Of a DNA stretch of 64,000 nucleotides, positions 49,842-64,000 are shown one piece after another. Within the stretch, counting starts at the first letter, position 1. Every line of letters starts with the position of its first letter. Made by a program: the position numbers and the translations under genes. The stretch covers positions 22,859-86,858 of IMG/VR virus record IMGVR_UViG_3300044630_004371. One strand, given 5' to 3'. Under the pieces are notes generated by a model that made no database searches, was not told where the DNA came from, and saw only the letters and a program-made list of their open reading frames with translations. Source of the DNA: a virus.

Positions 49842-49984
49842 ACCCTATTTTTAACCTTAAAATTTTTCCAAAAAAAAATTCACGAACATCATCATACCCC
49901 CTTTTTAAGGCTAGCACGGGGGGGCTATATAAGGGGGGTAACAAGCCAAAACGGGGGGAGGGGTGGTATAGGGGGGGGTATAGG
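49842..49984. repeat. Second copy of the A-tract/CACG..CATCATA..CACGGG motif, followed by five G runs
   Basis: G7 49918-49924, G6 49933-49938, G6 49953-49958, G4 49960-49963, G8 49971-49978. Confidence 0.8.
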
Positions 49985-50070
49985 ACAAAGATAAGCATTT
50001 ATATTGACATATCCATATAAAAAGGGAATAAGTTACCCACATTTTTTAGGTGTGGGTAACTTAATTTGTG

Positions 50071-50619
50071 TTAGTATCTTATAACTTTGTAAGTTTCTCC
50101 TAACAAAGCAATTTCAAGTACATTTTTAAGGTACAATTTTCTCCAAAGTATTTCACGTTCAGTACCTTGATTGGTAGCTTTGTTTTCGGTAGGTAAAAAG
50201 TCAACAAGTGTTTTTTTATCAGTTTCCACACCATCAGCAAAGTATTTTGTTTGTGGGAATACATTATCATTAGGTCGGTATTGTAGTACAAATTCGCCAT
50301 TAAAGATACCTATAAATTGGTTATTTTCGCCAAAGGTAATAGGCATTGTATTTTCGCCTTTGATGTAGTCAGTAGCTTGTTTGCCCTCTTTTGCTAATTG
50401 ATTGGTAACTGCTTTCTCATATTCGCTATTAAGCAAAATAGATACCCTTGATTGCTTTAAGATAGATTGATAAGGATTTTTGATATCGTTATTGGTACGA
50501 CTTTTTACAAGGCATTTAGGTAGTGTTTGTTGCAATACACTTGCAAATGTAGGCATACCTTTGGTAATTTTTGCATCAAACAAAATTTGTGCAAGTTCTT
50601 TTTCAGTTACGTTTTTCAT
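50071..50619 (-). CDS. Early hypothetical protein
   Basis: 182-aa ORF with its own promoter. Confidence 0.75.
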   Translation of the reverse strand: MKNVTEKELAQILFDAKITKGMPTFASVLQQTLPKCLVKSRTNNDIKNPYQSILKQSRVSILLNSEYEKAVTNQLAKEGKQATDYIKGENTMPITFGENNQFIGIFNGEFVLQYRPNDNVFPQTKYFADGVETDKKTLVDFLPTENKATNQGTEREILWRKLYLKNVLEIALLGETYKVIRY

Positions 50620-50750
50620 TTTTATGTTTTTTAATGATTGATTGATGATACAAATATAGGTATAATTTTTGAATTATCCAAATTTTTCTGCAATTATTTT
50701 TAATTGAAATTATCCACATATGGATTGTTGATAAGTTAGAATATAGTGTA

Positions 50751-50800
50751 GGTCGGAGTATACCTCCCGTTTCAACAACGTCCCGTTATCAATTGATAAC
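50751..50800 (-). ncRNA. Three-hairpin small RNA candidate, copy 1
   Basis: GTTATC-AATT-GATAAC GGGA CGTT-GTTGA-AACG GGAG-GTATA-CTCC GACC; begins 4 nt after TATCTTTG. Confidence 0.65.
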
Positions 50801-50847
50801 AAGACAAAGATAAGGAAAAGTTTTCACTTTTCCAAATCTTTTTATGA

Positions 50848-51012
50848 TTATTTTTCATCGTAATAAACACTTGTTGGTGGTATTCCTACTGCAACACAAA
50901 TTTCATCAATGATGCAATCCCCAAATTCTTCACTACCATAATCAATAAGAATACTTCTTATTTTTTCATGAGTTTCTTTCAAGGCTTCAATTTGTTCTTT
51001 AATTAATTCCAT
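50848..51012 (-). CDS. Early small protein
   Basis: Start moved to MELIKEQ, downstream of the promoter repeat. Confidence 0.65.
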   Translation of the reverse strand: MELIKEQIEALKETHEKIRSILIDYGSEEFGDCIIDEICVAVGIPPTSVYYDEK

Positions 51013-51089
51013 TGGTATATGTTTTAAATTATTAATAAAACAAAGATAAGGAAAAGTTTTCACTTTTCCAAATCTTTTTTCATTTATTT

Positions 51090-51251
51090 TTAACGATGTT
51101 TTACGTAGTTTTTCCAATTATGTTTTGGTTTCATCATTGCTTTGCCCCACCCTTTGCATTTTTTGTGATGATGTTTGCCATTGATATCAAGTGCATTGGC
51201 ATTGCATACAAAGGCTACTAATAAGATAACGATTACAAGGTACTTTTTCAT
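51090..51251 (-). CDS. 53-aa peptide with a signal-peptide-like N-terminus and basic/His C-terminus
   Basis: MKKYLVIVILLVAFVCNANA-LDINGKHHHKKCKGWG..., read by eye; own promoter. Confidence 0.55.
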   Translation of the reverse strand: MKKYLVIVILLVAFVCNANALDINGKHHHKKCKGWGKAMMKPKHNWKNYVKHR

Positions 51252-51330
51252 AATTATTTATTTTTAATTGATTAATAAGACAAAGATAAGGAAAAGAATT
51301 GACTTTTCCAAATCTTTTTTTAATTATTTT

Positions 51331-51456
51331 TTAGTTGAATAACCACATTGAGATATAGAATAACATTGATAAGGTTGTTAAAAAAACGATACCACCATAA
51401 AATTCTGAAGGAATTTCTTTACGAGCTTGGTTTAGTGTTGAGAAGATTGCTTTCAT
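51331..51456 (-). CDS. 41-aa membrane peptide
   Basis: MKAIFST...GIVFLTTLSMLFYISMWLFN; own promoter. Confidence 0.55.
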   Translation of the reverse strand: MKAIFSTLNQARKEIPSEFYGGIVFLTTLSMLFYISMWLFN

Positions 51457-51663
51457 TTTGATTGATTTTTGATTGATTAATGATACAAAGATAAGAATAA
51501 AAATTGAATTTTCCAAATTTATTTTTAAATAAAAATGAATACGCATAAAATAGTTATTGCTAAAAGGATTACTTTGAGAATGATAAGTTCTTTCATTTTG
51601 ATTGATTTTTGATTGATTAATGATACAAAGATAAGAATAAAAATTGAACTTTCCAAATTTATT

Positions 51664-51831
51664 TTAATCAAACATAACTTTTTTTGAGGTTTGTCTGTTG
51701 TAGTCTTTTTTTGTTTTGTGTACCTTGTGACTGAAGTTAGGAATTTTAGCGTCAATAGAAGCTTGTCTATTAGAGGCTTTATTCATTTTGATAATTTGTT
51801 CTTTGCTAATTTTGATAGTAAAAGCTTTCAT
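51664..51831 (-). CDS. Early small basic protein
   Basis: MKAFTIKI...HKVHKTKKDYNR. Confidence 0.6.
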   Translation of the reverse strand: MKAFTIKISKEQIIKMNKASNRQASIDAKIPNFSHKVHKTKKDYNRQTSKKVMFD

Positions 51832-51912
51832 TGTCTTGTTGTTTTGATAAGACAAAGATAAAAAAAAGGCTTGAATTATCCAAGCCTTTTTTTATAAAGT
51901 TATCAACATTTT

Positions 51913-52245
51913 TTAGTATGCACTTGTAGGCATATTTTGATTTTTTTCGTATGTTTGTCCCTCCCATTCAGTATCGGGGTTTGTAAGGCTGTGGAAGTAT
52001 TTTTTTAGTTGTTCGGCTATGTTGTCCAATTTAGCTTTTTGCTTATCGGTACAAGGCTTATTATAGGCTTGTATTGTGTTGTTGGCTTGTACCCTACCTA
52101 ATAGTCCACCACCCAAGTAGTTTTGGTATGCAGACATTTTTTCATTTTTAAAGCCTAGTGTGTCCAAGCTAATTTCTACACCACCACCACGAGAAGATAT
52201 TTCAGAACGTAGTGTAATGTTTTCAAAGTTGATTGCTTTTGCCAT
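51913..52245 (-). CDS. Early hypothetical protein
   Basis: Start moved to MAKAINF. Confidence 0.7.
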   Translation of the reverse strand: MAKAINFENITLRSEISSRGGGVEISLDTLGFKNEKMSAYQNYLGGGLLGRVQANNTIQAYNKPCTDKQKAKLDNIAEQLKKYFHSLTNPDTEWEGQTYEKNQNMPTSAY

Positions 52246-52325
52246 GATTGTATTGATTTTTGATTGATTAATAAGACAAAGATAAGGAAAAGTTTTCACA
52301 ATTCCAAATCTTTTTTCATTTATTT

Positions 52326-52634
52326 TTAATCATTTATTAAAAATTCGTCAGTAAGTTTGCCGTCCCATTCTAAGCTATTAAGATACCAAACACCTTTTTT
52401 AACTTGTATATGTACATTAGGCAAAGCGTTTAAGCGTTCTTTTGTTGTGTTGGTTTTATACCCACAAGTTGTGATAGCTAAGGTTTTTTCGGGGTTGTTA
52501 TACTTGTATGCTATTTCGTTGCCAAATAGCACCAAAACACTAACATTGGGAAATATTTTAACACTTGTATTACCACTATTAAAGGGTTCAGCGTTTAAAA
52601 ATTTTACTACTGCTTTTTTTGTAATTGTTCTCAT
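52326..52634 (-). CDS. Early hypothetical protein (TTKERLNA family)
   Basis: LFGNEIA...GYKTNTTKERLNAL motif, recalled from other phage early genes. Confidence 0.7.
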   Translation of the reverse strand: MRTITKKAVVKFLNAEPFNSGNTSVKIFPNVSVLVLFGNEIAYKYNNPEKTLAITTCGYKTNTTKERLNALPNVHIQVKKGVWYLNSLEWDGKLTDEFLIND

Positions 52635-52770
52635 TGTATTTTTTTTGATTGATTAATAAAACAAAGATAAGCAATTTTATTTAATTATCCAAATTTATTT
52701 TAAAAAATATTTTTTAAAAATAATCCAAAATAAATTTGGTAGTGTCATTTTTTATTCTTATCTTTGTATT

Positions 52771-52822
52771 GTTCAGTTGATGAACGTGACGGCTTGTAAG
52801 AGTCGGGAGGTATACTCCAACC
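52771..52822 (+). ncRNA. Three-hairpin small RNA candidate, copy 2
   Basis: GTTCA-GTTGA-TGAAC GTGA CGGCTT-GTAA-GAGTCG GGAG-GTATA-CTCC AACC; begins 4 nt after TATCTTTG. Confidence 0.65.
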
Positions 52823-52883
52823 TACCCCATATTTTTTTTAGAATAAATACCCTTATTTTTAAGGGTATTTTAACGTGTTTAAT

Positions 52884-53306
52884 TTAATAACCACCTCTAC
52901 ATATTGGTCCGAGTCCAAACTCAATAGATTTGGCATCTGTGAGTGTTTTACCACATACCAAACAATTGCCTGTATGCATAACTTCAACCAAGCTATCCAA
53001 AAGACCAAAATTTTTGGTTTCAGCTTTGCCCAAAACATAAGCAATAGCCATAGCAGAAGGTGAATCAACTACATTACCCTTGTGTCGAATACAGCCATTA
53101 AAATATGTACCTAAACGAACAAAATTTTGATATTCAACCTCAACCTTAACGTGTGTATACCAAACACCATTGTACTCGCTACGAGATATCTTATAGGTAT
53201 AGTCCTTGCCAGTCTTAATCGACTTGATAGTAAAATCAGAACCATTGTTATTAGCTTTACGATTGATTACCTCATAAAGTGCAGAAGAAGAAATAACGTG
53301 TGACAT
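52884..53306 (-). CDS. DUF6011-like zinc-binding protein
   Basis: CLVCGKTLTDAKSIEFGLGPIC. Confidence 0.75.
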   Translation of the reverse strand: MSHVISSSALYEVINRKANNNGSDFTIKSIKTGKDYTYKISRSEYNGVWYTHVKVEVEYQNFVRLGTYFNGCIRHKGNVVDSPSAMAIAYVLGKAETKNFGLLDSLVEVMHTGNCLVCGKTLTDAKSIEFGLGPICRGGY

Positions 53307-53403
53307 ATTGAATTATTTTGATTGATTAATAAAACAAAGATAAACAATTAATTTGAATTATCCAAATTTATTTTAAAAAAAAACATGCATGGTTTATAGG
53401 CCT

Positions 53404-53453
53404 GGTCGGAGTATACCTCCCGTTTCAACAACGTCCCGTTATCATTTGATAAC
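53404..53453 (-). ncRNA. Three-hairpin small RNA candidate, copy 3
   Basis: Differs from copy 1 at a single loop position; own promoter. Confidence 0.65.
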
Positions 53454-53506
53454 AAGACAAAGATAAGGAATTGTTTTCACAATTCCAAATCTTTTTTCAT
53501 TTATTT

Positions 53507-53803
53507 TTAACTTAATATTTCTTCGATACTTGGCTTGTCCAACTCGGCTTTATAGTCAGCTAAAATCTTTTCAAATTGTGGTAGGCAGTCAGAAGCAGAA
53601 CGACCTTTCAAACCATAATAGCGTTTGATATCGCTAAATTTAACCCCTCTACAAGTCATACCACTTGCCATAATTTTAAGGTTAAAACGATGTACGGCTA
53701 ACTGATAACCAAAGTAATCAATTTGTTTACCACCATTGCTTACTGAAGGTGTTTGTAGTTTGCCCTCACGAACTTGTTCTTGGGCTTGTTCAAATTGTGT
53801 CAT
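53507..53803 (-). CDS. Early hypothetical protein
   Basis: 98-aa ORF with its own promoter. Confidence 0.7.
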   Translation of the reverse strand: MTQFEQAQEQVREGKLQTPSVSNGGKQIDYFGYQLAVHRFNLKIMASGMTCRGVKFSDIKRYYGLKGRSASDCLPQFEKILADYKAELDKPSIEEILS

Positions 53804-53944
53804 AATTTATTTGTTTTAATGATTGATTAATAATACAAAGATGAGAATAAAAATCGACAATTCCAAATATTTTGATAAAAATATTTTTTAAAAATAATTG
53901 AAAATAAATTTGGTGGTCTCATTTTTTATTCTTATCTTTGTAAT

Positions 53945-53991
53945 GTTCAAATAACATAGCGGTCATAACGACCCTCAAGTATACTCCAACC
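53945..53991 (+). ncRNA. Three-hairpin small RNA candidate, divergent copy 4
   Basis: GTT-CAAAT-AAC...GGTC-ATAAC-GACC...GTATACTCCAACC; begins 4 nt after TATCTTTG. Confidence 0.45.
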
Positions 53992-54078
53992 TGGTTTTTA
54001 TCCTAAACAAAACTTTTTTAAAATAAATTTGGTAGTGTCATTTATTATTCTTATCTTTGCTTTATAAAATCAATCAAT

Positions 54079-54309
54079 ATGTACAACTTCACATTCAAAA
54101 CAGACGCAGAATTATTCCAAGCAGAATCCAAAGGCTTTATTGAAAGCTATGACATGGTTCGCATGGTGGTTAAAACAGGCAATTTAAACACTTGTGACTT
54201 CCCTTGCAAATCAGAAGAAGAATACAATAGATGTATTAAAATCTATAGTATTAAAATCGAACGTGTTTACCAAGATACACACAGCTTTGACATCATGGAT
54301 TATAATTAA
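54079..54309 (+). CDS. Early hypothetical protein
   Basis: 76-aa ORF behind a + strand promoter. Confidence 0.65.
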   Translation: MYNFTFKTDAELFQAESKGFIESYDMVRMVVKTGNLNTCDFPCKSEEEYNRCIKIYSIKIERVYQDTHSFDIMDYN

Positions 54310-54361
54310 AAAACTTGGGGAAACATTTGGTTTCCCCATTTATTTTTTGTATCTTTGTATT

Positions 54362-54432
54362 GTCAAGGTGGTGAAACGGTAAACACAAAGGGCGTTGCTC
54401 TAAATGTACAGGTTCGAATCCTGTCCTTGACA
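54362..54432 (+). tRNA. tRNA-like RNA with a non-canonical anticodon arm (identity not assignable)
   Basis: Acceptor GTCAAGG/CCTTGAC, D arm GTG-AAACGGTAAA-CAC, T arm ACAGG-TTCGAAT-CCTGT; anticodon arm AGGGC-GTT-GCTCT; no encoded CCA. Confidence 0.7.
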
Positions 54433-54433
54433 C

Positions 54434-54464
54434 AAAAAAGGCTAGAGTTAATCTAGCCTTTTTT
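54434..54464. terminator. Bidirectional terminator after the tRNA-like RNA
   Basis: AAAAAAGGCTAGA-GTTAA-TCTAGCCTTTTTT. Confidence 0.8.
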
Positions 54465-54555
54465 GGTATAGGTTATGTACGCAATTGTGTATATAGGGGT
54501 TATCCTTTAGCATACTCCTTTTCAAGTTCTTGCTCGAATAGGTTGGTATCCAAAT

Positions 54556-54768
54556 TTATTTGCAATTTTCTATGGCTTCCGAGTGTTTCATTTGTTCCTC
54601 AATAGATAACTCAGCAACACACACGATTTCTTCATTAGGTTTTAACTTAAAACCATTGTTGATAAGTTCTACAATGCTCGTGTAATGATACACTATATCA
54701 TAGGAATCAATACTTTTTTTTGTTGTTTTATTAAAGATAACGTAATCTTCTTTGGATATGTTTTGCAT
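54556..54768 (-). CDS. Early small protein
   Basis: 70-aa cassette ORF. Confidence 0.65.
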   Translation of the reverse strand: MQNISKEDYVIFNKTTKKSIDSYDIVYHYTSIVELINNGFKLKPNEEIVCVAELSIEEQMKHSEAIENCK

Positions 54769-54837
54769 AATGTTATTTGATTAGGATACAAAGATAAGGA
54801 GAATTTTTCAATTCTCCAAATCTTTTTACAATTATTT

Positions 54838-54987
54838 TTACAATCTATAAAACTTTTTTGTTCCATCTTTGTGAACAACGTTGAAGCAACGTCCCGAACC
54901 ATCTTCCATATCAATGCTTTGTACTTTGACTAGGTACTTGATTTCGATAAGTTGCTTTGCTAATTCTTTGATTGATTTTTCTAACAT
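54838..54987 (-). CDS. Early small protein (49 aa, MLEKSIKELAKQ...)
   Basis: Read by eye between two promoter repeats. Confidence 0.55.
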   Translation of the reverse strand: MLEKSIKELAKQLIEIKYLVKVQSIDMEDGSGRCFNVVHKDGTKKFYRL

Positions 54988-55052
54988 AGTATTTTAATTT
55001 ATTAGAATACAAAGATAAGGAGAATTTTTCAATTCTCCAAATCTTTTTTTAA

Positions 55053-55265
55053 TTAAATTTTATGCTCCCCAAAGGTATCAAAGTCTTGCACCTCATCATC
55101 AGCACTCATTCTAATTTCATCGTCAATACTATCAGCGTATTTTATCTCATTAAAGATAGCGTCTATCTTATCTTTATCTTCTTGTGTAGCAGAATTGCTA
55201 TCTTCAAAAATAATAAGCAATTCACAAGCATTGTTTAATAATCGTTCTAGGGTTTCTTTTTTCAT
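55053..55265 (-). CDS. Early small acidic protein
   Basis: Start moved to MKKETL. Confidence 0.65.
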   Translation of the reverse strand: MKKETLERLLNNACELLIIFEDSNSATQEDKDKIDAIFNEIKYADSIDDEIRMSADDEVQDFDTFGEHKI

Positions 55266-55366
55266 AACTATAATGTTTAATTGATTAGGATACAAAGATA
55301 AGAATAAGTTTTGACACTACCAAATAAAAAAGGAGGAATTTTCATCCTCCAATTTTAATCAATCAA

Positions 55367-55570
55367 TCAACAAGGCACTACTGAACAATAGTCAGCAATA
55401 TCTTCTAAAGGTATTCTTCCACGATTGGAGGAATAATACCCTTGTCTTTCATATCTTTTGGCAAAGTCCTCAAGTTCTTTTGGGACTTGCTTTTCGGTAT
55501 AGTTTGCTTTGTCCATTCGGATATCAAAGCCATCGGGAGATAATATTCTAAATTTTTGTACTTTTGACAT
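55367..55570 (-). CDS. Early small protein
   Basis: Start moved to MSKVQK. Confidence 0.65.
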   Translation of the reverse strand: MSKVQKFRILSPDGFDIRMDKANYTEKQVPKELEDFAKRYERQGYYSSNRGRIPLEDIADYCSVVPC

Positions 55571-55613
55571 AACTTTATTGATTTGATTAGGATACAAAGA
55601 TAAGCAATTAATT

Positions 55614-56012
55614 TTAATTTTCCAAATCTTTTTCAAACTTTTTCACAAAAAAATTGCTAATAGAATTTAGTTTGGTTCTCATTTTGATTGCATCTTCATC
55701 TTGCCCATTATCCTCTAAATCATCAGCAACATCATAAAGGCTTGTCAGTTCTTCAAAAACTTTTTTTGGTGTTTTATCCAAATCTTTCATGTAAATTATT
55801 TCACCATTCCATTGTGGGTGTGCATACATTTCAAGACACAAATAACAATCATAACCTTTTTCTTCAAGGTCATCAATATATTGGTCATATTGGTCAGCCA
55901 AGATTTGAATGTGAGTTCCCTTGTCAAATATTCTTACTGGTGACTTATCGGTTTTATCTTCGTGTGCAGTATCCCAAGTGCCATTGATAAAGATGTTGAT
56001 TAATGTATTCAT
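55614..56012 (-). CDS. Early hypothetical protein
   Basis: 132-aa cassette ORF running into the next repeat. Confidence 0.65.
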   Translation of the reverse strand: MNTLINIFINGTWDTAHEDKTDKSPVRIFDKGTHIQILADQYDQYIDDLEEKGYDCYLCLEMYAHPQWNGEIIYMKDLDKTPKKVFEELTSLYDVADDLEDNGQDEDAIKMRTKLNSISNFFVKKFEKDLEN

Positions 56013-56080
56013 TGTTTTGATTGATTTGATTATGATACAAAGATAAGCAATTAATTTGAATTATCCAAATCTTTTTGTAT

Positions 56081-56284
56081 TTATTTTCTAAAATTTCTTG
56101 TGATGTCCTTGGGGTTGGAAGTTTGCCCATCAGCATATTCTAATACACTATGTAGGGTTTCATCTTCACCCATTTCATTTTTAAGGAAGTCTATTACCTC
56201 ATCTTTGGTATCGAAGTCATAAGATTCTTCAATATAATCCCCATCATTAAAGTGGTTTCTTGTTTCTACTGAATAGGTTGGCAT
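56081..56284 (-). CDS. Early small acidic protein
   Basis: Start moved to MPTYSVE. Confidence 0.65.
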   Translation of the reverse strand: MPTYSVETRNHFNDGDYIEESYDFDTKDEVIDFLKNEMGEDETLHSVLEYADGQTSNPKDITRNFRK

Positions 56285-56589
56285 ATGATATTTGTTTTGA
56301 TTATGATACAAAGATAAGGAATTATTTTCACAATTCCAAATCTTTTGTAAAGTTTTTTAATAACCTCCAGTAAATGTTATAACGATATTTGCATCTTCTT
56401 CGATAGCATCAAAGGTTACACCTGATGCAATAAGGTCGGATAACATTTTTGTAAAGGTTTCTTTGGTTACGATTAGTACTCTCATTGTTTTATTGTTTTG
56501 ATTATAATACAAAGATAAGGAATTATATTGACACTACCAAATAAAAAAGGAGGAATTTTCATCCCTCCAATCTTAATCAATCATTATTT

Positions 56590-56847
56590 TTATACTGCGA
56601 TTACCCAATCGGTAACACCCCAATTTACCGAAGACGATACTGAGTATCCTTTCTTTCTCAATCGGTCAGCCACAATCGGCATATACATATACTCCTCAAC
56701 GCTCCAACCATAAGACGGTGCACACGATGAAGTTGTAAATGTGGTGGTTAGAGCATCTCCCGATAACCAACCTTCTATTCTTTCTTGAAGGCTTTGGATA
56801 AAATTTTCTTTTCTTTCTTGTGGTGTAAGTGTTGCTGTTTCTAACAT
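56590..56847 (-). CDS. Early small protein
   Basis: 85-aa cassette ORF. Confidence 0.65.
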   Translation of the reverse strand: MLETATLTPQERKENFIQSLQERIEGWLSGDALTTTFTTSSCAPSYGWSVEEYMYMPIVADRLRKKGYSVSSSVNWGVTDWVIAV

Positions 56848-56932
56848 AATTTTATTTATTTTGATTGTTGATTAATATGATACAAAGATAAGGAAAAGTT
56901 TTCACATTTCCAAATATTTTTGTAATTAATTT

Positions 56933-57478
56933 TTATTCATCTTCACCCCATTCATCTTCATCTTCATCTTCTTCTGCTTCGATAAAAACTACTTGGAATG
57001 CCACATACTCACCATTGCTATCTTTTTGCCCAAATACCCGATAAGAGCCATCTCCAAAACCCGATGAAGATACAACACCATTAGGTAATACACCCCATTG
57101 TTCATCAGCCAAGGTAATATCAGCACAAGCACGATACCACTCATCACCTTCTTCCGTATCGTAATCATCACCAAAATTGTGTTTTTTTAACTCTTTTGCT
57201 TTCTCATCATTACGATAAAACTCTTTGTCAAAGAAGCCAAATTGCCCACTATCAACCCCAGCACTAAAAGGCATTTCTTCAAACTTACCCGATAGAAAAT
57301 GATTTACGTGGTTAATACGTAATTCAGCTATTCTACGACCCCAAGATTCATCTTCTTCAACGTCAGCAACCCAAGTGCCTTTCTTTACGTTTTCTACGAT
57401 ACCTTGACACCAAGTCGGAATTGAGTAGCAAGGGTCGGAACAAACAAGTGTTCCCGATACAATTTCAAATTTTTCCAT
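56933..57478 (-). CDS. DUF4241-like protein
   Basis: LVCSDPCY, GVDSGQFGFFD, SSGFGDGSY. Confidence 0.7.
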   Translation of the reverse strand: MEKFEIVSGTLVCSDPCYSIPTWCQGIVENVKKGTWVADVEEDESWGRRIAELRINHVNHFLSGKFEEMPFSAGVDSGQFGFFDKEFYRNDEKAKELKKHNFGDDYDTEEGDEWYRACADITLADEQWGVLPNGVVSSSGFGDGSYRVFGQKDSNGEYVAFQVVFIEAEEDEDEDEWGEDE

Positions 57479-57549
57479 AATTTATTTAATTGATTAGAAT
57501 ACAAAGATAAGGAAAAGTTTTCACATTTCCAAATATTTTTTCAACTTTT

Positions 57550-57765
57550 TTAAATTGCTCTTGATTGCTCAATAAGTTTCAAAATTTCTTCAACTGATTC
57601 AACAACCTTATAACCACCATTGTTATGTGAATCGTGCTTTAATGTGCTACCTATACCATCTTCATGTGGATACATACCTTGAATACCATTGACACTTAAA
57701 ACCATTTTGGTTCCAATCATTTGGTTGTAATTGTTGGTTACTGTAATAAATCTAATATTGCTCAT
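57550..57765 (-). CDS. Early small protein
   Basis: C-terminal VVESVEEILKLI pattern. Confidence 0.65.
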   Translation of the reverse strand: MSNIRFITVTNNYNQMIGTKMVLSVNGIQGMYPHEDGIGSTLKHDSHNNGGYKVVESVEEILKLIEQSRAI

Positions 57766-57829
57766 ATCTTTTGTTTTTGATTAGAATACAAAGATAAGGA
57801 AAAGTTTTCACTTTTCCAAATCTTTTTTG

Positions 57830-58099
57830 TTAAAATTTGCTACACTTGTCAATCCACTCTGCCACTTCATTTGCCGAACAATAGCCTTTAACTTCATCAG
57901 TACCAAAGTCAAACCATTTATCGTCTTTATCCCACATGGCAATTTCTGCCGTTTTACTCTCCAAGTCCTTTGTGTTGTTCCATCCGTCTTGTGATATACT
58001 TCTATTATCACAATAGTTTCCATAACCCCATTGTACAGATATTGTCCACCCGTTTTCAAAAGTAATTTGAAAGCCTTTTCTTAATGTTGATTTGAACAT
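57830..58099 (-). CDS. Early hypothetical protein
   Basis: FENGWTISVQWG.GNYC..AEIA..DEVKGY motif, recalled from other phage early genes. Confidence 0.7.
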   Translation of the reverse strand: MFKSTLRKGFQITFENGWTISVQWGYGNYCDNRSISQDGWNNTKDLESKTAEIAMWDKDDKWFDFGTDEVKGYCSANEVAEWIDKCSKF

Positions 58100-58172
58100 A
58101 GTTGTTTGTTTTGATTAGAATACAAAGATAAGGAAAAGTTTTCACTTTTCCAAATCTTTTTTCAATTATTTT

Positions 58173-58448
58173 TTAGTGTACAAGATAATTTTCACCTTTG
58201 ATTGTTAGCCTTGTAATAGTGTCAAGGTTAATCATTCGCCATTCTTTGACTTGCATATCATACACTGGCTTTAACCCCTTAAGACTTGGATTGTAAGCCA
58301 TACCACTACCTGTTACACCTTTGGTTACACCCAAACGGCAATTCATTACTCGTGTGGTGTTGTCTTTCTTTCTGAATTCAGCGGTGAAGATTTTACCTTT
58401 GGATTGGTTGATAAGCTCAACTGCGGCTACTTTGCTAATAAATTGCAT
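58173..58448 (-). CDS. SH3/WYL-like beta-barrel protein
   Basis: FTAEFRKKDNTTRVMNCRLGV...VYDMQVKEWRMINL; start moved to MQFISK. Confidence 0.7.
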   Translation of the reverse strand: MQFISKVAAVELINQSKGKIFTAEFRKKDNTTRVMNCRLGVTKGVTGSGMAYNPSLKGLKPVYDMQVKEWRMINLDTITRLTIKGENYLVH

Positions 58449-58516
58449 AATGTTATTTGATTTGATTATGATACAAAGATAAGGAAAATAAATGACTTTT
58501 CCAAATCTTTTTTCAA

Positions 58517-58777
58517 TTATTTTTCTAATGGTGTCCACTCTATATCGTAAAGGTCTTCATCTAATTCGGGGCTATAAGCTGAATAGCCCTCAACAACTGA
58601 TGGGTAAACATATTCACCACTACGATTACAATATCCAATGGGTTTTGTTGTTGATAAAATTACACTTTCTTCACTTCCATTAACCATGTGGATAAATGGC
58701 TGATTTTGTTCGTTTGTGATTACCATATCTTTAGGGTAAGCACTTAGTAATTCGATTAGTTTTCCTACTGTTGTCAT
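58517..58777 (-). CDS. Early small protein
   Basis: MTTVGKLIELLSAYPKDM. Confidence 0.65.
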   Translation of the reverse strand: MTTVGKLIELLSAYPKDMVITNEQNQPFIHMVNGSEESVILSTTKPIGYCNRSGEYVYPSVVEGYSAYSPELDEDLYDIEWTPLEK

Positions 58778-58842
58778 GATATTTGATTTGATTAGAATAC
58801 AAAGATAAGGAAAAGTTTTCACAATTCCAAATCTTTTTTCAA

Positions 58843-59235
58843 TTATTTTTTGTCAAACATACTTGATTTTTCTTCTAATAAAAGTTCAGTATCTGCAATT
58901 GTTTTTGTCATTATAAGTTGGCGGTGCATTTGGTCACTCATACCAACCTTTTCAAGGATATACTGCATTCTCTCTCCATCAATATCAATAGCTTTCAGTT
59001 TCTTGATGATTTCATTCACTTCTTCATAGTTATAAAAACCCCAAGTCAAAGATTCATTGCTTGTTAAATCACAGGCTATTTCGATGTTGTTAAGGTTCGT
59101 AAAGGCTTCATCTGATGTTGATGAACGCATTTGGAATGCCTCGGTTAAACCTCGTTGTGCGATGAATTTTCTGATTACTTTTAAATCGTCAGCTACCATG
59201 GCTAAACGATGTTCTAATTGTTGCTCTTTTGTCAT
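58843..59235 (-). CDS. Early hypothetical protein
   Basis: 130-aa cassette ORF. Confidence 0.65.
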   Translation of the reverse strand: MTKEQQLEHRLAMVADDLKVIRKFIAQRGLTEAFQMRSSTSDEAFTNLNNIEIACDLTSNESLTWGFYNYEEVNEIIKKLKAIDIDGERMQYILEKVGMSDQMHRQLIMTKTIADTELLLEEKSSMFDKK

Positions 59236-59592
59236 GATTGATTAGATTAAAATGTTACTGAATAAATGATTGCAATAGTACCTAAGATTGCTAATACCTT
59301 CAAAATATTTGCCCATTGTTGTATTGTTACTTTTTTCATGATTGTTTGATTTGATTATGGTACAAAGATAAGAAAAAAAAATGACATTACCAAATAATAA
59401 TGCCACTTTTTTTCAATCAATCTAAAAGTTGTGAATACCATGCACAATCACATTGTAAACTATAAGACTTACTAATGTCAATGCAATACAACACATTAAA
59501 ATAACTTCTGATATTACTTTCATCGTTTTTATTATTTGATTAGAATACAAAGATAAGGAAAGTATTTCTACTTTCCAAATCTTTTTTCAAAT

Positions 59593-59913
59593 TTATTTTA
59601 TTTTAATTCCGTTTTGTATTAGGACTGCATCAATTAAAGTTTTTTCTTCGTTTGCATCTACTACAAAGTTATCACAAGCCTTTTGACTGAACCTTGCCAT
59701 ATCTTTTAAATGCTTTTTAAAGCCACTAAAAGCTGCATAACTTTCAGAATTTTCTGTTCTACTAACTGGCGACACAGATAATTTGATACCTCTAGATTCA
59801 ACGCCACCTGTAAAATAATTTGCACCACCTTTGTCATAATATACTTCAACTTTTAAATGTGTTGCTCTTGGATTAGGTTCTAATTCTAGATACTTTTTAC
59901 TAATTTTTGCCAT
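59593..59913 (-). CDS. Early hypothetical protein
   Basis: YYDKGGANYFTG..RGI.LSV.PV. Confidence 0.7.
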   Translation of the reverse strand: MAKISKKYLELEPNPRATHLKVEVYYDKGGANYFTGGVESRGIKLSVSPVSRTENSESYAAFSGFKKHLKDMARFSQKACDNFVVDANEEKTLIDAVLIQNGIKIK

Positions 59914-59986
59914 GGTTGATTGTTTTGATTAATAATACAAAGATAAGGAAAAGTTTTCACTTTTCCAAATCTTTTTTCGTTTATTT

Positions 59987-60616
59987 TTAATCTTCTTTGA
60001 TAACATCAAAACTCTTGGTTATACTTAACGTAAGTACGTTATCTACAAGTTTCAACTCTTCACCCTCTTCATTTGTAGTATAGGTATGCCACTCATTTAT
60101 TTCACCCTTAACATCATTCGGTGTATAATCTTGGGCAAATTCGGATATTTTTTCTTCCAACCCTTTCAAAGTTTCTTCTTGCTCGTTGGTAAGGATAAAG
60201 TCCTTTTTGTAATTGGTTTGTATATCATCTTCACCACCATTGATATTCAGTACATAGTCAGCCACAAATTTAGCTTCTTCATCAGTAAGTTCAATTTCAG
60301 CTTCGTTTACTGAACTTTCACTCCATTCACTTGATGAAGATTTTGAGTAGGTAAAATCGTTTTCATCTTCATCAAACTCAATAGTTACCACTCCAAACTC
60401 ACCTTGATAATGTCCGTCAGAATTTACATAAAACTCTACGTTGTTGTAGGTTTTGTCATCAAAGTATGTTTCAAGTTCACTATCTTGTACCAACTCACCC
60501 TCTTTGTCAAAGATTTCAATACTTGTGTCATTCATACTATCACCACCACAACTAAAATTAAAATTAACGTGGTCAATGTTTTTTTCTTTCCAAATTTTGA
60601 TAATATTTTCTGCCAT
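59987..60616 (-). CDS. Acidic protein (DUF6878-like)
   Basis: FSCGGDS...G.FGVVTIEF; very Asp/Glu-rich. Confidence 0.55.
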   Translation of the reverse strand: MAENIIKIWKEKNIDHVNFNFSCGGDSMNDTSIEIFDKEGELVQDSELETYFDDKTYNNVEFYVNSDGHYQGEFGVVTIEFDEDENDFTYSKSSSSEWSESSVNEAEIELTDEEAKFVADYVLNINGGEDDIQTNYKKDFILTNEQEETLKGLEEKISEFAQDYTPNDVKGEINEWHTYTTNEEGEELKLVDNVLTLSITKSFDVIKED

Positions 60617-60673
60617 TTGTTTATGATTTTTGATTATGATACAAAGATAAGTAATTAAATTGAGATTACCAAA

Positions 60674-61069
60674 TTATTGGCTAATTTTTTCTAAAAATTC
60701 TTTTGCAGTTTGTTCTGCTTCGGGATTGTCAATGTTTTTTACTGCATTGTTAAACCAGGGTTGAACTACAACGTGCTTCAAATAATCTTGTGGTGTTGGT
60801 ACAAATTTCATTCTAAAATCTTCTGCTATATGTAGCATAGCAATATCAACACTATCAACACTTCTGCCATCGGAATTGATTATATTATACCCAAAAATCT
60901 TTGGAATGATAGTGTATGCAAACCAAGTATTATGTGTTAATAACCTTGCTGAATTGTTGTTCATTGTAGCTTTTGGACTATCAATAAGTTCGTGGATAGC
61001 TAAATAATCTTCTACTTTTCCACCCCAACGCTTAACGCTGGATTTTGAATGTATCATTGGATTTGCCAT
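60674..61069 (-). CDS. DUF6915-like protein
   Basis: NPMIHSKSSVKRWGG..DYLAIH..ID..K...R..TH...HIAEDF. Confidence 0.65.
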   Translation of the reverse strand: MANPMIHSKSSVKRWGGKVEDYLAIHELIDSPKATMNNNSARLLTHNTWFAYTIIPKIFGYNIINSDGRSVDSVDIAMLHIAEDFRMKFVPTPQDYLKHVVVQPWFNNAVKNIDNPEAEQTAKEFLEKISQ

Positions 61070-61139
61070 AATTGATTGATTTGATTATGATACAAAGATA
61101 AGGAAAAGTTTTCACTTTTCCAAATCTTTTTTCATTTTT

Positions 61140-61406
61140 TTAGTCCCAAATTTGACTAATTTTTTGGTCAAATGGATTGTACTCAACTTGTTTACCCATT
61201 ACCCAATTACCCTTTTCAACTGCAAGGGTTTGATGTTCGTTACTCCAAGAACCATTGGGCATTTCGTGTTTCAATAAGCTATCCTTTTTTACAACAAGGT
61301 CAGCAAAGTCGGTAGTTTCTTTTTCAATGGCAAATTCGCCATACAAGGTATGTTGGTTTGCACCCTCACCTTTCAATAGTGTTTGTTTTTTTACGTTACG
61401 TTTCAT
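61140..61406 (-). CDS. Small His-motif protein
   Basis: LLKGEGANQH...LKHE..EH...QVEYNP. Confidence 0.65.
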   Translation of the reverse strand: MKRNVKKQTLLKGEGANQHTLYGEFAIEKETTDFADLVVKKDSLLKHEMPNGSWSNEHQTLAVEKGNWVMGKQVEYNPFDQKISQIWD

Positions 61407-61513
61407 TTGATATGATTTTTTAATTATGATACAAAGATAAGCAATTTATTTGAAAAATCCAAATTTTTTATGAAAAAAGGTGGAAAATAAATTTCCACCC
61501 TTTTATCAATCAA

Positions 61514-62188
61514 TCAACTTTCAGCAACCAAAAGTTCCTTATATTCTTTTTCAGTCAAGTGTCTTGCACTATCCAAAGGTTTGTATTTGCCATTGGGTTT
61601 GATTAATACGCAATCACCTTGTCGGATAATCTTTTCAATGCTACCTTGTGGTACGTTGGTTTGGATAGTCCAAGCAATACATTGGATAGCATTGATTTTT
61701 TTAATATCATACTCCCAACGATTTTCATTATTGGTATTATAAACACTTTGTGGCTCAACCCAAATAAAATAGTTTCTATCAGTTGATGTATCTTTCAGTT
61801 TCACAAAGTAAGCATTTTCCATTTTATTCCAACCTTGCAACCCCTCGTTAAAATACTCACCACTTACCTCGTAAAGTTCATAGGTATCATTGAATTTTGT
61901 TGTAACAAGTTTTCCGTTTTCATCTACCCAATTAGTAGATTTTTTTAGTGTTTTTTTGCTCAATAATTTTGGTTGAACTTCACTTGCAAGTCGTTCCAAC
62001 CCCAAGCATAATACACCTACTCTACGTTGTTCCAAATTAGGTAGTTTGGCAATATCTTTGAATGTCAAAGGAACAATATCGTTCCAAATATCTTCAAGTT
62101 CAGCCATTGGGCAATCTTTGTGTTTCAACTTCAACAAACGACAACCCATATCGTAAGGAAACTTTTGATTGTTGATAATGATTTGCAT
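61514..62188 (-). CDS. DUF6745-like protein
   Basis: NLEQRRV...DTSTDRNYFIWVEP...AIQCIAWT...RQGD. Confidence 0.55.
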   Translation of the reverse strand: MQIIINNQKFPYDMGCRLLKLKHKDCPMAELEDIWNDIVPLTFKDIAKLPNLEQRRVGVLCLGLERLASEVQPKLLSKKTLKKSTNWVDENGKLVTTKFNDTYELYEVSGEYFNEGLQGWNKMENAYFVKLKDTSTDRNYFIWVEPQSVYNTNNENRWEYDIKKINAIQCIAWTIQTNVPQGSIEKIIRQGDCVLIKPNGKYKPLDSARHLTEKEYKELLVAES

Positions 62189-62246
62189 ATTTTTATTATT
62201 TGATTAGAATACAAAGATAAGGAAAAGATTTGGTATTTCCAAATTT

Positions 62247-62489
62247 TTATTTAGAATTTTTTAAAACTTCATCAATAGCTGTCTTTAAATCTTTTAGCTG
62301 TTCTCTCGTCATTAGTGGTATCATCATTGAACTAAACCCTAAATCACGTCTTTCAGTACGACTATCACTATCGGGATAAAGGTTATTATCAGTTATACTC
62401 ACATAACCTATATTACCTGTTAAACCTACACTTATTGTGTGTCCATTGGTACTGATTTGTCTTTGTGCTAGTTTATGTTGGTTAGCCAT
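62247..62489 (-). CDS. Early small protein
   Basis: 80-aa cassette ORF. Confidence 0.65.
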   Translation of the reverse strand: MANQHKLAQRQISTNGHTISVGLTGNIGYVSITDNNLYPDSDSRTERRDLGFSSMMIPLMTREQLKDLKTAIDEVLKNSK

Positions 62490-62864
62490 TGTTATTTGAT
62501 TTGATTAGAATACAAAGGTAAGGAAAGTATTTCTACTTTCCAAATCTTTTTGCAATTATTTTTTCATAATGACTTTGTTTTCTATCATACCTTGTCCTAT
62601 CACATCAAAACGTTCACCCAAAGATAAGTTTTCATACCCCTCAAATGGATAAACAACTCTAAAGTTGCAACGAGGATTGGTTTCACAAGTAATTTCTTTT
62701 TTGCTAAAAACACTTAATAGTAATGCTAACATAATTATTTTATTTGATTAGAATACAAAGATAAGGAATTAATTTGACACTACCAAATTTATTTTTGATT
62801 ATTTTTAAAAAATATTTTTGTATAAAAGTTTGGAAATGTCAATTCTTTTTTCTATCTTTGTATT

Positions 62865-62912
62865 GTTCAATTGATGAACGAGACGATGATGAATCGGGAG
62901 GTATACTCCACT
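62865..62912 (+). ncRNA. Three-hairpin small RNA candidate, copy 5
   Basis: GTTCA-ATTGA-TGAAC GAGA CGAT-GATGA-ATCG GGAG-GTATA-CTCC; begins 4 nt after TATCTTTG. Confidence 0.65.
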
Positions 62913-62979
62913 ATGCCCCTACTTTAACCTAACACCAAAAAGCAAAGGAGCCAATAGGCCCCAATTGCTTCATCAATCA

Positions 62980-63177
62980 TCAAGCGTTTACCAAACTTGA
63001 ATGTTTGGCTATAAATTCTTTATAAACGACATATGGGTCAACTTCGGTGTTGGTATCTTTGTAATTCAGTACCAAGTACTTGACAAAGTTGATACGTGTG
63101 TTTGTCTGTGGGGCTGTCAAATCTTCTTGTATATCTGACAAGTGGCTTAGAATAATCATGCTTACTTTTACTTTCAT
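62980..63177 (-). CDS. Early small protein
   Basis: 65-aa cassette ORF. Confidence 0.6.
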   Translation of the reverse strand: MKVKVSMIILSHLSDIQEDLTAPQTNTRINFVKYLVLNYKDTNTEVDPYVVYKEFIAKHSSLVNA

Positions 63178-63246
63178 TGTTTTTGATTTTGTTAAGACAA
63201 AGATAAGGAATTGTTTTCACAATTCCAAATCTTTTTTAAAGTTTTT

Positions 63247-63525
63247 TTAGATTATCCAAAACATTATTGTTCCGCAATCATGCCATTCAGCAAACCAACC
63301 ATGCTTCTCTAAAAAGTTGTAGATTTCAGTATGCACTCCCAACTCGTAACGTTTGCCTTCACCATAGTGGTTGAATAATGGGTAGCCATCTTTGGCTGGT
63401 AATCTATCTTCACCACTTGACCAAATTCCACCCTTCCAACCACCGAATTCTTCAGTTGTGCGTAAGAACATTTTAGGGTATTTCACCTCTAATAGTTCAA
63501 TCATTTGTTCTCTTGTCTTTACCAT
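63247..63525 (-). CDS. Early small protein
   Basis: 92-aa cassette ORF. Confidence 0.65.
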   Translation of the reverse strand: MVKTREQMIELLEVKYPKMFLRTTEEFGGWKGGIWSSGEDRLPAKDGYPLFNHYGEGKRYELGVHTEIYNFLEKHGWFAEWHDCGTIMFWII

Positions 63526-63593
63526 TGTTTTATTGTTTGATTATAATACAAAGATAAGAATAAGTTTTCACACTTCCAAATTTATTTGCAACT

Positions 63594-64000
63594 TTATTTT
63601 ATTCTTTTGATAATTACCAAAGTCATCGGATACGTATCTTGGTAGTAAAAGAATTCAACCACTTCGTAGTTCCAACCTGTAACCTTGTTAAAATAAGCCT
63701 CAATAGCCCTGTCTGACATACATCTGTCATCTGCATTATTGATAGCCGCAAGCCCTTTTAATTTTTCAGCCTGTGGCGTTGTGCCTCTCATTGGTTTGGC
63801 AAACGTAACACACATACAACCACCAACCACAACCAAATCATTGGTAATAGCATATTCAACTTCTTTGCTTATTGTATGCAATTCACCACAATAATCCATA
63901 ATAAGATGTGCATAACTATTTTCAATTTTGCCATAGACTTTATCGCCAAAGTAACCCAAATACGTTTCAGCATTTAAGCCTGTATTTTTAAGGTTTGAAC
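63594..64000 (-). CDS. Early hypothetical protein, 5'-truncated by the window edge
   Basis: Reading frame continues to the end of the window. Confidence 0.6.
   Translation of the reverse strand, partial: SNLKNTGLNAETYLGYFGDKVYGKIENSYAHLIMDYCGELHTISKEVEYAITNDLVVVGGCMCVTFAKPMRGTTPQAEKLKGLAAINNADDRCMSDRAIEAYFNKVTGWNYEVVEFFYYQDTYPMTLVIIKRIK

Follow-up and report, generated by a model that had tools for sequence, protein, structure and literature searches.

A candidate family of small three-hairpin RNA genes located behind promoters of uncultured large phages

The stretch of DNA analysed here, 64 kb in length and called the window throughout, is the 3' end of an 86.9-kb virus record of IMG/VR (IMGVR_UViG_3300044630_004371). 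An original prediction, made from the letters of the sequence, had pointed to five promoters which lead to no open reading frame (ORF), but to five related elements of about 50 nt, read as a folded non-coding RNA. The question raised by the locus is whether these elements are genuine copies of an RNA gene and, if so, what such an RNA may do in the infected cell. That the five repeats are true copies of one gene, which starts at its promoter and specifies a small, folded, non-coding RNA, is well supported by sequence comparison. The element recurs in many uncultured large phages from lakes and seas, and the copies very probably belong to a real RNA gene family. As to the role, an RNA which acts in trans by binding one conserved partner is tentatively favoured.

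Five copies of the element in the window

All five elements were found at the positions and on the strands originally indicated. They are listed below with their promoters, and with the matches to R1, a covariance model built from the five copies.

50751-50800, minus strand: copy 1 (R1 match 50745-50800, 69.2 bits)
50805-50836, minus strand: promoter of copy 1 (TTTG, hairpin-bearing spacer, TATCTTTG ending 4 nt before the element)
52735-52766, plus strand: promoter of copy 2 (TTTG ... TATCTTTG)
52771-52822, plus strand: copy 2 (R1 match 52771-52828, 72.1 bits), followed by a T8 run at 52833-52840
53404-53453, minus strand: copy 3 (R1 match 53398-53453, 66.8 bits), followed by a minus-strand U9 run at 53375-53383
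53458-53490, minus strand: promoter of copy 3
53909-53940, plus strand: promoter of copy 4
53945-53991, plus strand: copy 4, without the 5' strand of the third hairpin, keeping GUAUACUCCAACC (R1, 45.7 bits)
62829-62860, plus strand: promoter of copy 5
62865-62912, plus strand: copy 5 (R1 match 62865-62919, 73.8 bits), with the tail ACUAUGCC in place of RACCURCC

Every copy begins with GTT exactly 4 nt after TATCTTTG, a spacing borne out by reading the sequence. The 13-mer GGAGGTATACTCC, searched with up to 2 mismatches, occurs 4 times in the window (0.46 expected), a number reached in none of 100 shuffles. Copies 1 and 3 are nearly identical, as are copies 2 and 5, and the window therefore holds only two independent versions of the element, plus the variant copy 4. 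Copies 1, 2, 3 and 5 each fold alone into three hairpins, with a frequency of the minimum free energy structure of about 0.8 and z scores of about -2.2 to -2.5. The order is P1, a 4-nt linker (GNGA), P2, and P3, the last made by GGAG-GUAUA-CUCC. P3 is invariant in these four copies, and the copies differ in P1 and P2 by paired changes, both in the way first described.

Copy 4 had been regarded as degenerate, though retaining a conserved motif. The motif GTATACTCCAACC is kept and the 5' strand of P3 is gone, but decay alone is unlikely: the variant recurs, with the element unchanged, in the close relatives L170 and L206, and for this reason copy 4 is viewed as a kept variant.

The copies are GC-rich, as had been claimed, with values of 0.43-0.50 against 0.316 for the region 49900-64000, where 3.7% only of the 50-nt windows reach a GC content of 0.45. 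Small TTG-start frames overlap the copies, and differ from copy to copy. The elements are read as non-coding because no such frame is common to them, and because the length steps of P2 are not multiples of three. No known RNA family was recognised in the element, in agreement with the first reading: Rfam 15 gave no match either with gathering scores (five copies) or at E<=10 with lax filters (50000-64000), and no family matched related loci, 24 of which were found free of any Rfam RNA adjoining the element.

Relatives, covarying helices and the invariant 3' module

A strict pattern (promoter box, GTT and core) retrieved nothing from IMG/VR, and a relaxed core pattern succeeded. Scanning IMG/VR with the 17-letter core GGAGGTATACTCCRACC yielded 22 stretches; R1 finds full-length matches at E<=0.01 in 21, and the remaining one is truncated by the contig end. 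A scan of metagenomes, with the core written as GGGAGGTATACTCCRAC, gave at least 119 stretches, 80 of which were taken into the analysis. A later model, R2, gives 85 matches at E<=0.01 in 68 of these 80 loci. A handful of the weakest, promoterless matches (e.g. L160, L164, L182, L166, L142) may be due to chance. Run free of any pattern on whole large records, R2 matched five records out of five, and 11 of 20 large records selected because related by TerL or found by pattern; as the records are fragments, the lack of a match in any of them means little. Copies vary in number from 1 to 6 per record, one being found in each near-complete jumbo-phage genome (217 kb, 84% complete, and 253 kb, 94% complete), and 2 to 6 elsewhere. 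The TerL proteins of the jumbo carriers and of the window phage are 28-30% identical, in the N-terminal part only, and the RNA is therefore distributed over two phage clades of deep divergence.

In bacteria, the exact 17-mer core marks 18 loci, always as a single occurrence, in 185,579 prokaryote species genomes (one representative per species), and no convincing copy was found in this set. R2 scores at the 18 loci do not exceed 30.6 bits, and three reach E<=0.01. Loci L126 and L124 resemble coding DNA, feature no promoter, and were rejected. In a metagenome-assembled genome (MAG) of Mycobacterium, the locus L125:3781-3879 (minus strand) has the exact core and a 21-bit R2 match behind a promoter-like pair, TTGACG...TTTAACAT; it may be a distant relative residing in an actinobacterial (pro)phage, or a chance occurrence. 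Two representative copies, compared with 50,697 GenBank phage records, gave no match over the core.

The model built from the five copies finds homologues which covary, and the opposite case, envisaged in the original prediction, did not occur. Covariation was counted on alignments fitted to the model, namely A3 (metagenome copies, 71 distinct rows) and A4 (copies found by the model free of pattern, 32 distinct rows). In A3, pairing is found in 90.6% of the cells, against 80.4% in shuffles, and the covariation score is 0.240 against 0.089, a value reached in none of 500 shuffles. Slid controls, in which partners were moved by 1-3 columns, gave 35-55% pairing and scores not exceeding 0.062. Changes at both sides were observed at seven pairs, all within P1 and P2. 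The score of A4 is 0.329 against 0.097, with both-side changes at 8 pairs. Folded singly, free of alignment, 68 of 93 unique sequences form three hairpins (mean z -1.3). Comparison of the homologues shows in this way that P1 and P2 are real helices. The claim that pairing is preserved while sequence changes holds for P1 and P2, where covariation is strong, but not for P3: here variants of the 5' strand (GGGAAG, GGAAGG, GGAAAG, GGUAGG, CUCAAG) are in no case compensated, and CUCC is constant.

Three further pairings are compatible with most sequences, and lack support from covariation. Linker and tail may form a closing helix or tandem G-A pairs, with no covariation in the linker/tail table; pairing of core and tail (GGGAGGU/ACCUNCC) scores 507 against 503.6 with shuffled tails, and pairing of loop and tail (GGUA/UACC) 290 against 287.7. 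Mutual information across the element revealed no further pairing signal.

The 3' module consists of a purine-rich strand (mostly GGGAGG), GUAKACUCC and RAC, and can form a weak hairpin of 3-4 bp. GUAKACUCC is unchanged in all 116 full model matches, and is usually followed by RAC, then often by CUR-CC; the 5' strand of the module and the tail both vary. In the loop, G-U-A-K-A, the fourth position alone varies (U or G), a pattern which fits, by analogy, a GNRA-like pentaloop with one looped-out base. Pentaloops of this kind are sites of protein recognition, as boxB with the N peptide (PMC12550061). At the other side of the element, the last base of the short linker is an A, directly followed by the C opening P2. 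A second, divergent 3' module (GGGUAGACUCCGACCUGCAC) was observed at L119:15340-15440 (minus strand), which corresponds to G002 near 185.4 kb. This module immediately follows the terminator of the preceding gene, shows by eye no separate promoter, and is below R2 detection at E<=0.01.

The box TAnnTTYR is present in 70 of 105 unique upstream regions, and in 55 of the 105 its end is located exactly 4 nt before the element. Another group features TGGTATATT, presumably the extended -10 of a sigma-70 type promoter, 7 nt before the element. In both promoter classes the start of the element coincides with the predicted start of transcription, and the existence of two classes suggests hosts from different phyla. 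Transcription early in infection is suggested by the host-type promoter. Downstream, a T run (5 residues or more) is found within 30 nt in 46 of 109 unique tails; in 35 of the 109 it starts 13-14 nt past CUCC, usually after AUA. Copies of the jumbo-phage lineage have a distinct terminator hairpin, 10 bp long and with a U run, about 20 nt further downstream. A second terminator, working in both directions, is found after many copies. The element itself was not classified as an intrinsic terminator, as U runs lie 13-14 nt past CUCC rather than within 0-2 nt of the hairpin, and none was called after copies 1-4.

The early region and the neighbouring genes

The region from about 49.9 kb to the end of the window is packed with small ORFs, chiefly on the minus strand, each preceded by a promoter. 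In the whole window 55 TATCTTTG boxes were counted, against an expectation of 4.9, and 42 of them lie within the final 14 kb. These promoters (TTTG, about 19-20 nt, TAnnTTTG) are presumably of the Bacteroidota kind. In many cases the spacer which separates the TTTG box from TATCTTTG forms in turn a hairpin of 7-8 bp, of the GGAAAAGTGAAAACTTTTCC type. Features other than the elements are as follows.

50814-50833, 51050-51069, 51290-51309, 53467-53486: spacer hairpins, among others, called by a simple scan
52326-52634, minus strand: early ORF matching Kyano_Gp96 (45 bits)
52884-53306, minus strand: early ORF of 140 aa matching DUF6011 (39 bits)
54362-54432, plus strand: tRNA-like gene matching Rfam tRNA (RF00005, 49.1 bits), not called by ARAGORN

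Copies 2 and 3 point at each other across the DUF6011 ORF. The tRNA-like gene also starts 4 nt past TATCTTTG, and a terminator hairpin is found at about 54436-54465; as its anticodon arm is made by 5 bp and a 3-nt loop, it cannot decode. ARAGORN found 0 tRNA genes in the window, and the RF00005 match corresponds to none of the five elements. The TerL protein of the window (597 aa) is 78-96% identical to those of many uncultured IMG/VR contigs, and 28-30% identical to those of Flavobacterium phage immuto, a Microcystis phage and T4-like cyanophages. In a close relative, TerL (G021:C1:51049-53478) is matched in two pieces within a single 819-aa open frame; about 200 aa are inserted in frame, and may represent an intein.

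No protein family is common to the neighbours of the element across lineages, and a Pfam search of 136 neighbour clusters found no family in more than one cluster. According to naive ORF calls, the next downstream ORF (n=115) is co-directional in 60 cases and convergent in 31; in 20 cases the contig ends and in 4 the ORF is absent, so that 31 of 91 scorable ORFs are convergent. The position of the element relative to homologous ORFs differs among relatives, and the window genes located downstream of the copies carry promoters of their own.

Some associations are confined to single lineages. A gene coding for an 85-aa WYL_2 protein (Sm-like SH3 fold; L087:4022-4276, plus strand, 58 bits) is found about 115-390 nt past the RNA gene, in a single sub-lineage of jumbo phages (9 ORFs, all near-identical). 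WYL_2 was rejected as a conserved neighbour, a family search over ten records having given one weak match only. In the window, a 121-aa ORF of the same early region (58176-58538, minus strand) is weakly WYL_2-like (22.7 bits, below cut-off). A gene for a DnaB/RecA-like ATPase is located near the element in one lineage, and synteny with replication genes is confined to it. Both near-complete jumbo carriers encode the ribosomal protein bS21 (G001:C1:41662-41814, 46 bits; G002:C1:224366-224527, 50 bits). By eye, no sequence resembling a Shine-Dalgarno (SD) motif precedes the G002 gene, unlike host rpsU.

Proposed role, rival explanations and known systems

The trans-acting reading takes each copy as a stand-alone small non-coding RNA gene, which would be transcribed from a strong host-type promoter, starting at the first base of the element, into an RNA of about 65-75 nt in many relatives. 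P1 and P2 would be scaffold hairpins, free in sequence provided that pairing holds, and the RNA would present in trans the invariant 3' module to one conserved partner, most likely a host or phage protein. It might work as decoy, sponge or small ribonucleoprotein (RNP), in a dose set by promoter strength and gene copy number. A stand-alone gene is suggested by the presence of its own promoter and often its own stop, by the lack of a fixed neighbour, and by the third of copies without a gene to read into. One partner bound in trans is suggested by the combination of two free scaffolds and a fixed module, by the 1-6 copies per record, and by conservation across clades and host types. A protein is preferred, with reserve, to a base-pairing role, because the fixed module occupies a small hairpin, possibly GNRA-like, and its immediate surroundings, and because no complementary site was found in the phage genomes and MAGs searched. 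A bolder version, which we consider unlikely, is that of a factor for host take-over or counter-defence consisting of RNA alone. It would be produced in large amounts as infection begins, and its invariant boxB-like pentaloop hairpin and C-rich tail would mimic a recognition site common to several bacterial phyla, titrating the factor which reads it. The titrated factor could be an RNA-targeting immune effector or, in Bacteroidota, ribosomes with a free anti-SD end (no bS21), together with the phage's own bS21.

Several points weigh against a stand-alone RNA acting in trans. At least 79% of the words of 50600-54500 are present in 17 lake-water DNA runs, and 8-17% in three RNA runs. RNA-library contigs from three lake runs (X18-X20) lie over adjacent early ORFs and give no clear signal at the elements; no starts or ends are seen in the metatranscriptome contigs, which count neither for nor against expression. 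A simple scan of 50600-54600 calls no canonical terminator after copies 1-4, which makes the 3' ends of the window copies uncertain. Invariance of the core is partly built in, as most homologues were obtained by means of the exact 17-mer, and as the models take much of their score from the core. The covariation counts depend on alignments fitted to the model: MAFFT and RNAalifold, applied to 37 diverse copies, gave 3 P3 pairs only, all invariant. P1 and P2 are missed in this case because helices vary in length and are left unaligned, and the evidence for covariation therefore rests on model-fitted alignments and single-sequence folds. P3 (GGAG/CUCC) shows no covariation in any set, and its inner pair is missing in 13 of 32 model-found rows. 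Finally, 60 of 91 downstream ORFs are co-directional, which leaves room for a role in cis.

A role in cis would make the element a promoter-proximal leader, which in nascent form alters the polymerase, or the choice made at the following U run, either in the manner of a nut/put antitermination site or as an attenuator akin to riboswitches, and the short RNA would represent only a by-product of termination. Besides the co-directional ORFs, this view would account for the constant location of the element at +1 of the promoter, for the T run (5 residues or more) starting 13-14 nt past CUCC in 35 of 109 unique tails, for the boxB-like pentaloop, and for the ability of the core to pair with either CUCC or the tail ACCUNCC (5-7 of 7 pairs in 74 of 94 sequences). 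The alternative pairing does not covary, however (507 against 503.6 when tails are shuffled); of 91 scorable ORFs downstream, 31 are convergent, many copies have a second, two-way terminator after them, the genes downstream in the window have their own promoters, and the leaders of two Flavobacteriaceae rrn operons, when read, showed no likeness to the element. The odds are clearly against a leader. A base-pairing small RNA fares somewhat better, though it too is rather unlikely. The invariant C-rich UACUCCRACCU would be the seed for a conserved G-rich site, and a run of at least nine invariant bases between variable hairpins is the pattern of Yfr1 (PMC2190773). In a special case the SD-like GGGAGGU would pair with the anti-SD end of 16S rRNA, which would connect the RNA with the biology of bS21 in the ribosomes of Bacteroidota. 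In one Flavobacteriaceae genome the 3' end of 16S rRNA (...ACACCUCCUUUCU) is the complement of GGGAGGU, and within the element the core resembles an SD, CUCC and the tail ACCURCCUU an anti-SD; rpsU has GGAGGUGA or GGAGGUAG, rare strong SDs, before the ATG in three of four Flavobacteriaceae genomes, and both near-complete carriers encode bS21. Yet phage bS21 genes are common in such phages anyway, and the SD-like strand is the varying part of the module, the invariant part being not SD-like. Moreover, the complement of GUAUACUCCRAC identified elements and background only, both in the window (up to 2 mismatches) and in four large phage records and three Bacteroidota MAGs (up to 1 mismatch).

Covarying helices around invariant junction or loop bases are the usual pattern of riboswitch aptamers and small ribozymes, and their conservation across host phyla would suit a ligand-binding aptamer or a small ribozyme, with the invariant bases as pocket or active site and the helices as scaffold. 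This is improbable: no Rfam riboswitch or ribozyme was matched, even at E<=10, the three hairpins are in series with hardly any junction bases, linker-tail and loop-tail pairings lack support from covariation, and there is no consistent gene to regulate. Still less credit is given to a replication primer, an origin transcript or some other signal at the DNA level. T4 ori(uvsY) and ori(34) are precedents for origin transcripts; short G-rich transcripts driven by promoters are predicted in both orientations, and the RNA gene is near the DnaB/RecA-like ATPase gene in one lineage. Against this, helix pairing is kept via G-U pairs on the transcribed strand, there is no evident unwinding element, synteny with replication genes is found in that lineage only, and near-complete genomes have a single good copy. 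The primer or single-stranded DNA signal suggested in the original prediction gained nothing from the data, as G-U pairs and coupling to the promoter point to RNA. Equally small is the chance that the element has no function of its own, being either a promoter cassette which shuffles and behaves selfishly, or an unusual terminator maintained by hitch-hiking. The early region, which resembles a series of cassettes and has 42 TATCTTTG boxes within 14 kb, and the different positions of copies relative to homologous ORFs in relatives would agree with such an origin, but not conservation over two deep clades and two promoter classes, the compensatory changes, and a core unchanged while flanks diverge.

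Should a trans-acting RNA with one conserved partner be the correct reading, a host factor common to several phyla would imply a new kind of tool for host take-over or anti-defence, whereas a phage protein would point to a novel small RNP in jumbo and T4-like phages. With more than 100 natural variants, a design made by a scaffold and an invariant module, and a defined start, the family is ready for experiment. In uncultured phages of Bacteroidota it can also serve as a handy marker of the start of transcription and of early promoters.

Among known RNAs, Yfr1 of cyanobacteria bears some likeness to the phage element. It is a small RNA of about 55-70 nt with variable stem-loops, conserved lineage-wide, carrying a perfectly conserved word which starts with ACUCC; this C-rich word, ACUCCUCACAC, is thought to pair with targets (PMC2190773). 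Yfr1 is however a host RNA, in which ACUCCUCACAC is unpaired between two hairpins. The element described here is phage-borne and has three hairpins, the third of which carries GUAKACUCC across its loop and 3' strand. Membership in the Yfr1 family was rejected, as there is no Rfam match and the conserved word is GUAKACUCC, within a hairpin.

Lambdoid boxB/nut sites and the put sites of HK022 are likewise short structured RNAs located immediately downstream of early promoters, and a genome has several copies of them. The promoter-proximal position of nut and put is seen here too, the TAnnTTYR box ending 4 nt upstream of the element in 55 of 105 regions, and others having TGGTATATT at 7 nt. The loop resembles boxB in being a pentaloop of the G-N-R-(N)-A type, the fourth position alone being variable (PMC12550061). 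In contrast to nut and put, a third of the scorable copies (31 of 91 convergent) have no co-directional gene to read into. No boxA-like word was seen, and no N-like protein turned up, though no search was aimed at N-like proteins.

RNA anti-CRISPRs and pseudo-ToxI RNAs, the precedents originally proposed for a decoy, share with the element the nature of small non-coding phage RNAs with their own promoter, possibly titrating a factor. An RNA anti-CRISPR is a solitary CRISPR repeat, and ToxI consists of units of about 34-36 nt repeated in tandem, directly upstream of a gene for an endoribonuclease toxin. Both parallels fail where tested. The exact core gave 18 single matches and no arrays in the 185,579 species genomes; copies are dispersed rather than tandem, each with its own promoter, no toxin gene adjoins them, and there is neither a common neighbour family nor Pfam enrichment. 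The decoy idea itself is kept as one form of the trans-acting reading.

In T4-type phages, PeSL (promoter-early stem-loop) units are found at the sides of protein genes, with the stem-loop acting as terminator. The swappable early region, its small genes each with an early promoter, and a unit order which differs among relatives recall PeSLs; the element unit, in contrast, has no ORF and holds a conserved three-hairpin RNA. Presumed resemblances to signal recognition particle RNA domain IV (P2, in one lineage), hairpin-ribozyme loop B, the T4 gp43 operator loop and 16S helix 45 were given no weight. To our knowledge, phage small RNAs with established roles are few, and none is common to distant clades of large environmental phages.

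In the literature searched, which did not extend to the candidate list of PMC10690425, neither the 13-mer core nor four 13-mer core-tail strings were found, and no such RNA is described. The candidates of Fremin et al. 2023 (PMC10690425) are also covarying phage RNAs of unknown function from IMG/VR, and the element family may be among its 10,006 unnamed candidates. The family is regarded here as new, a well-supported orphan within the general kind of phage small RNAs.

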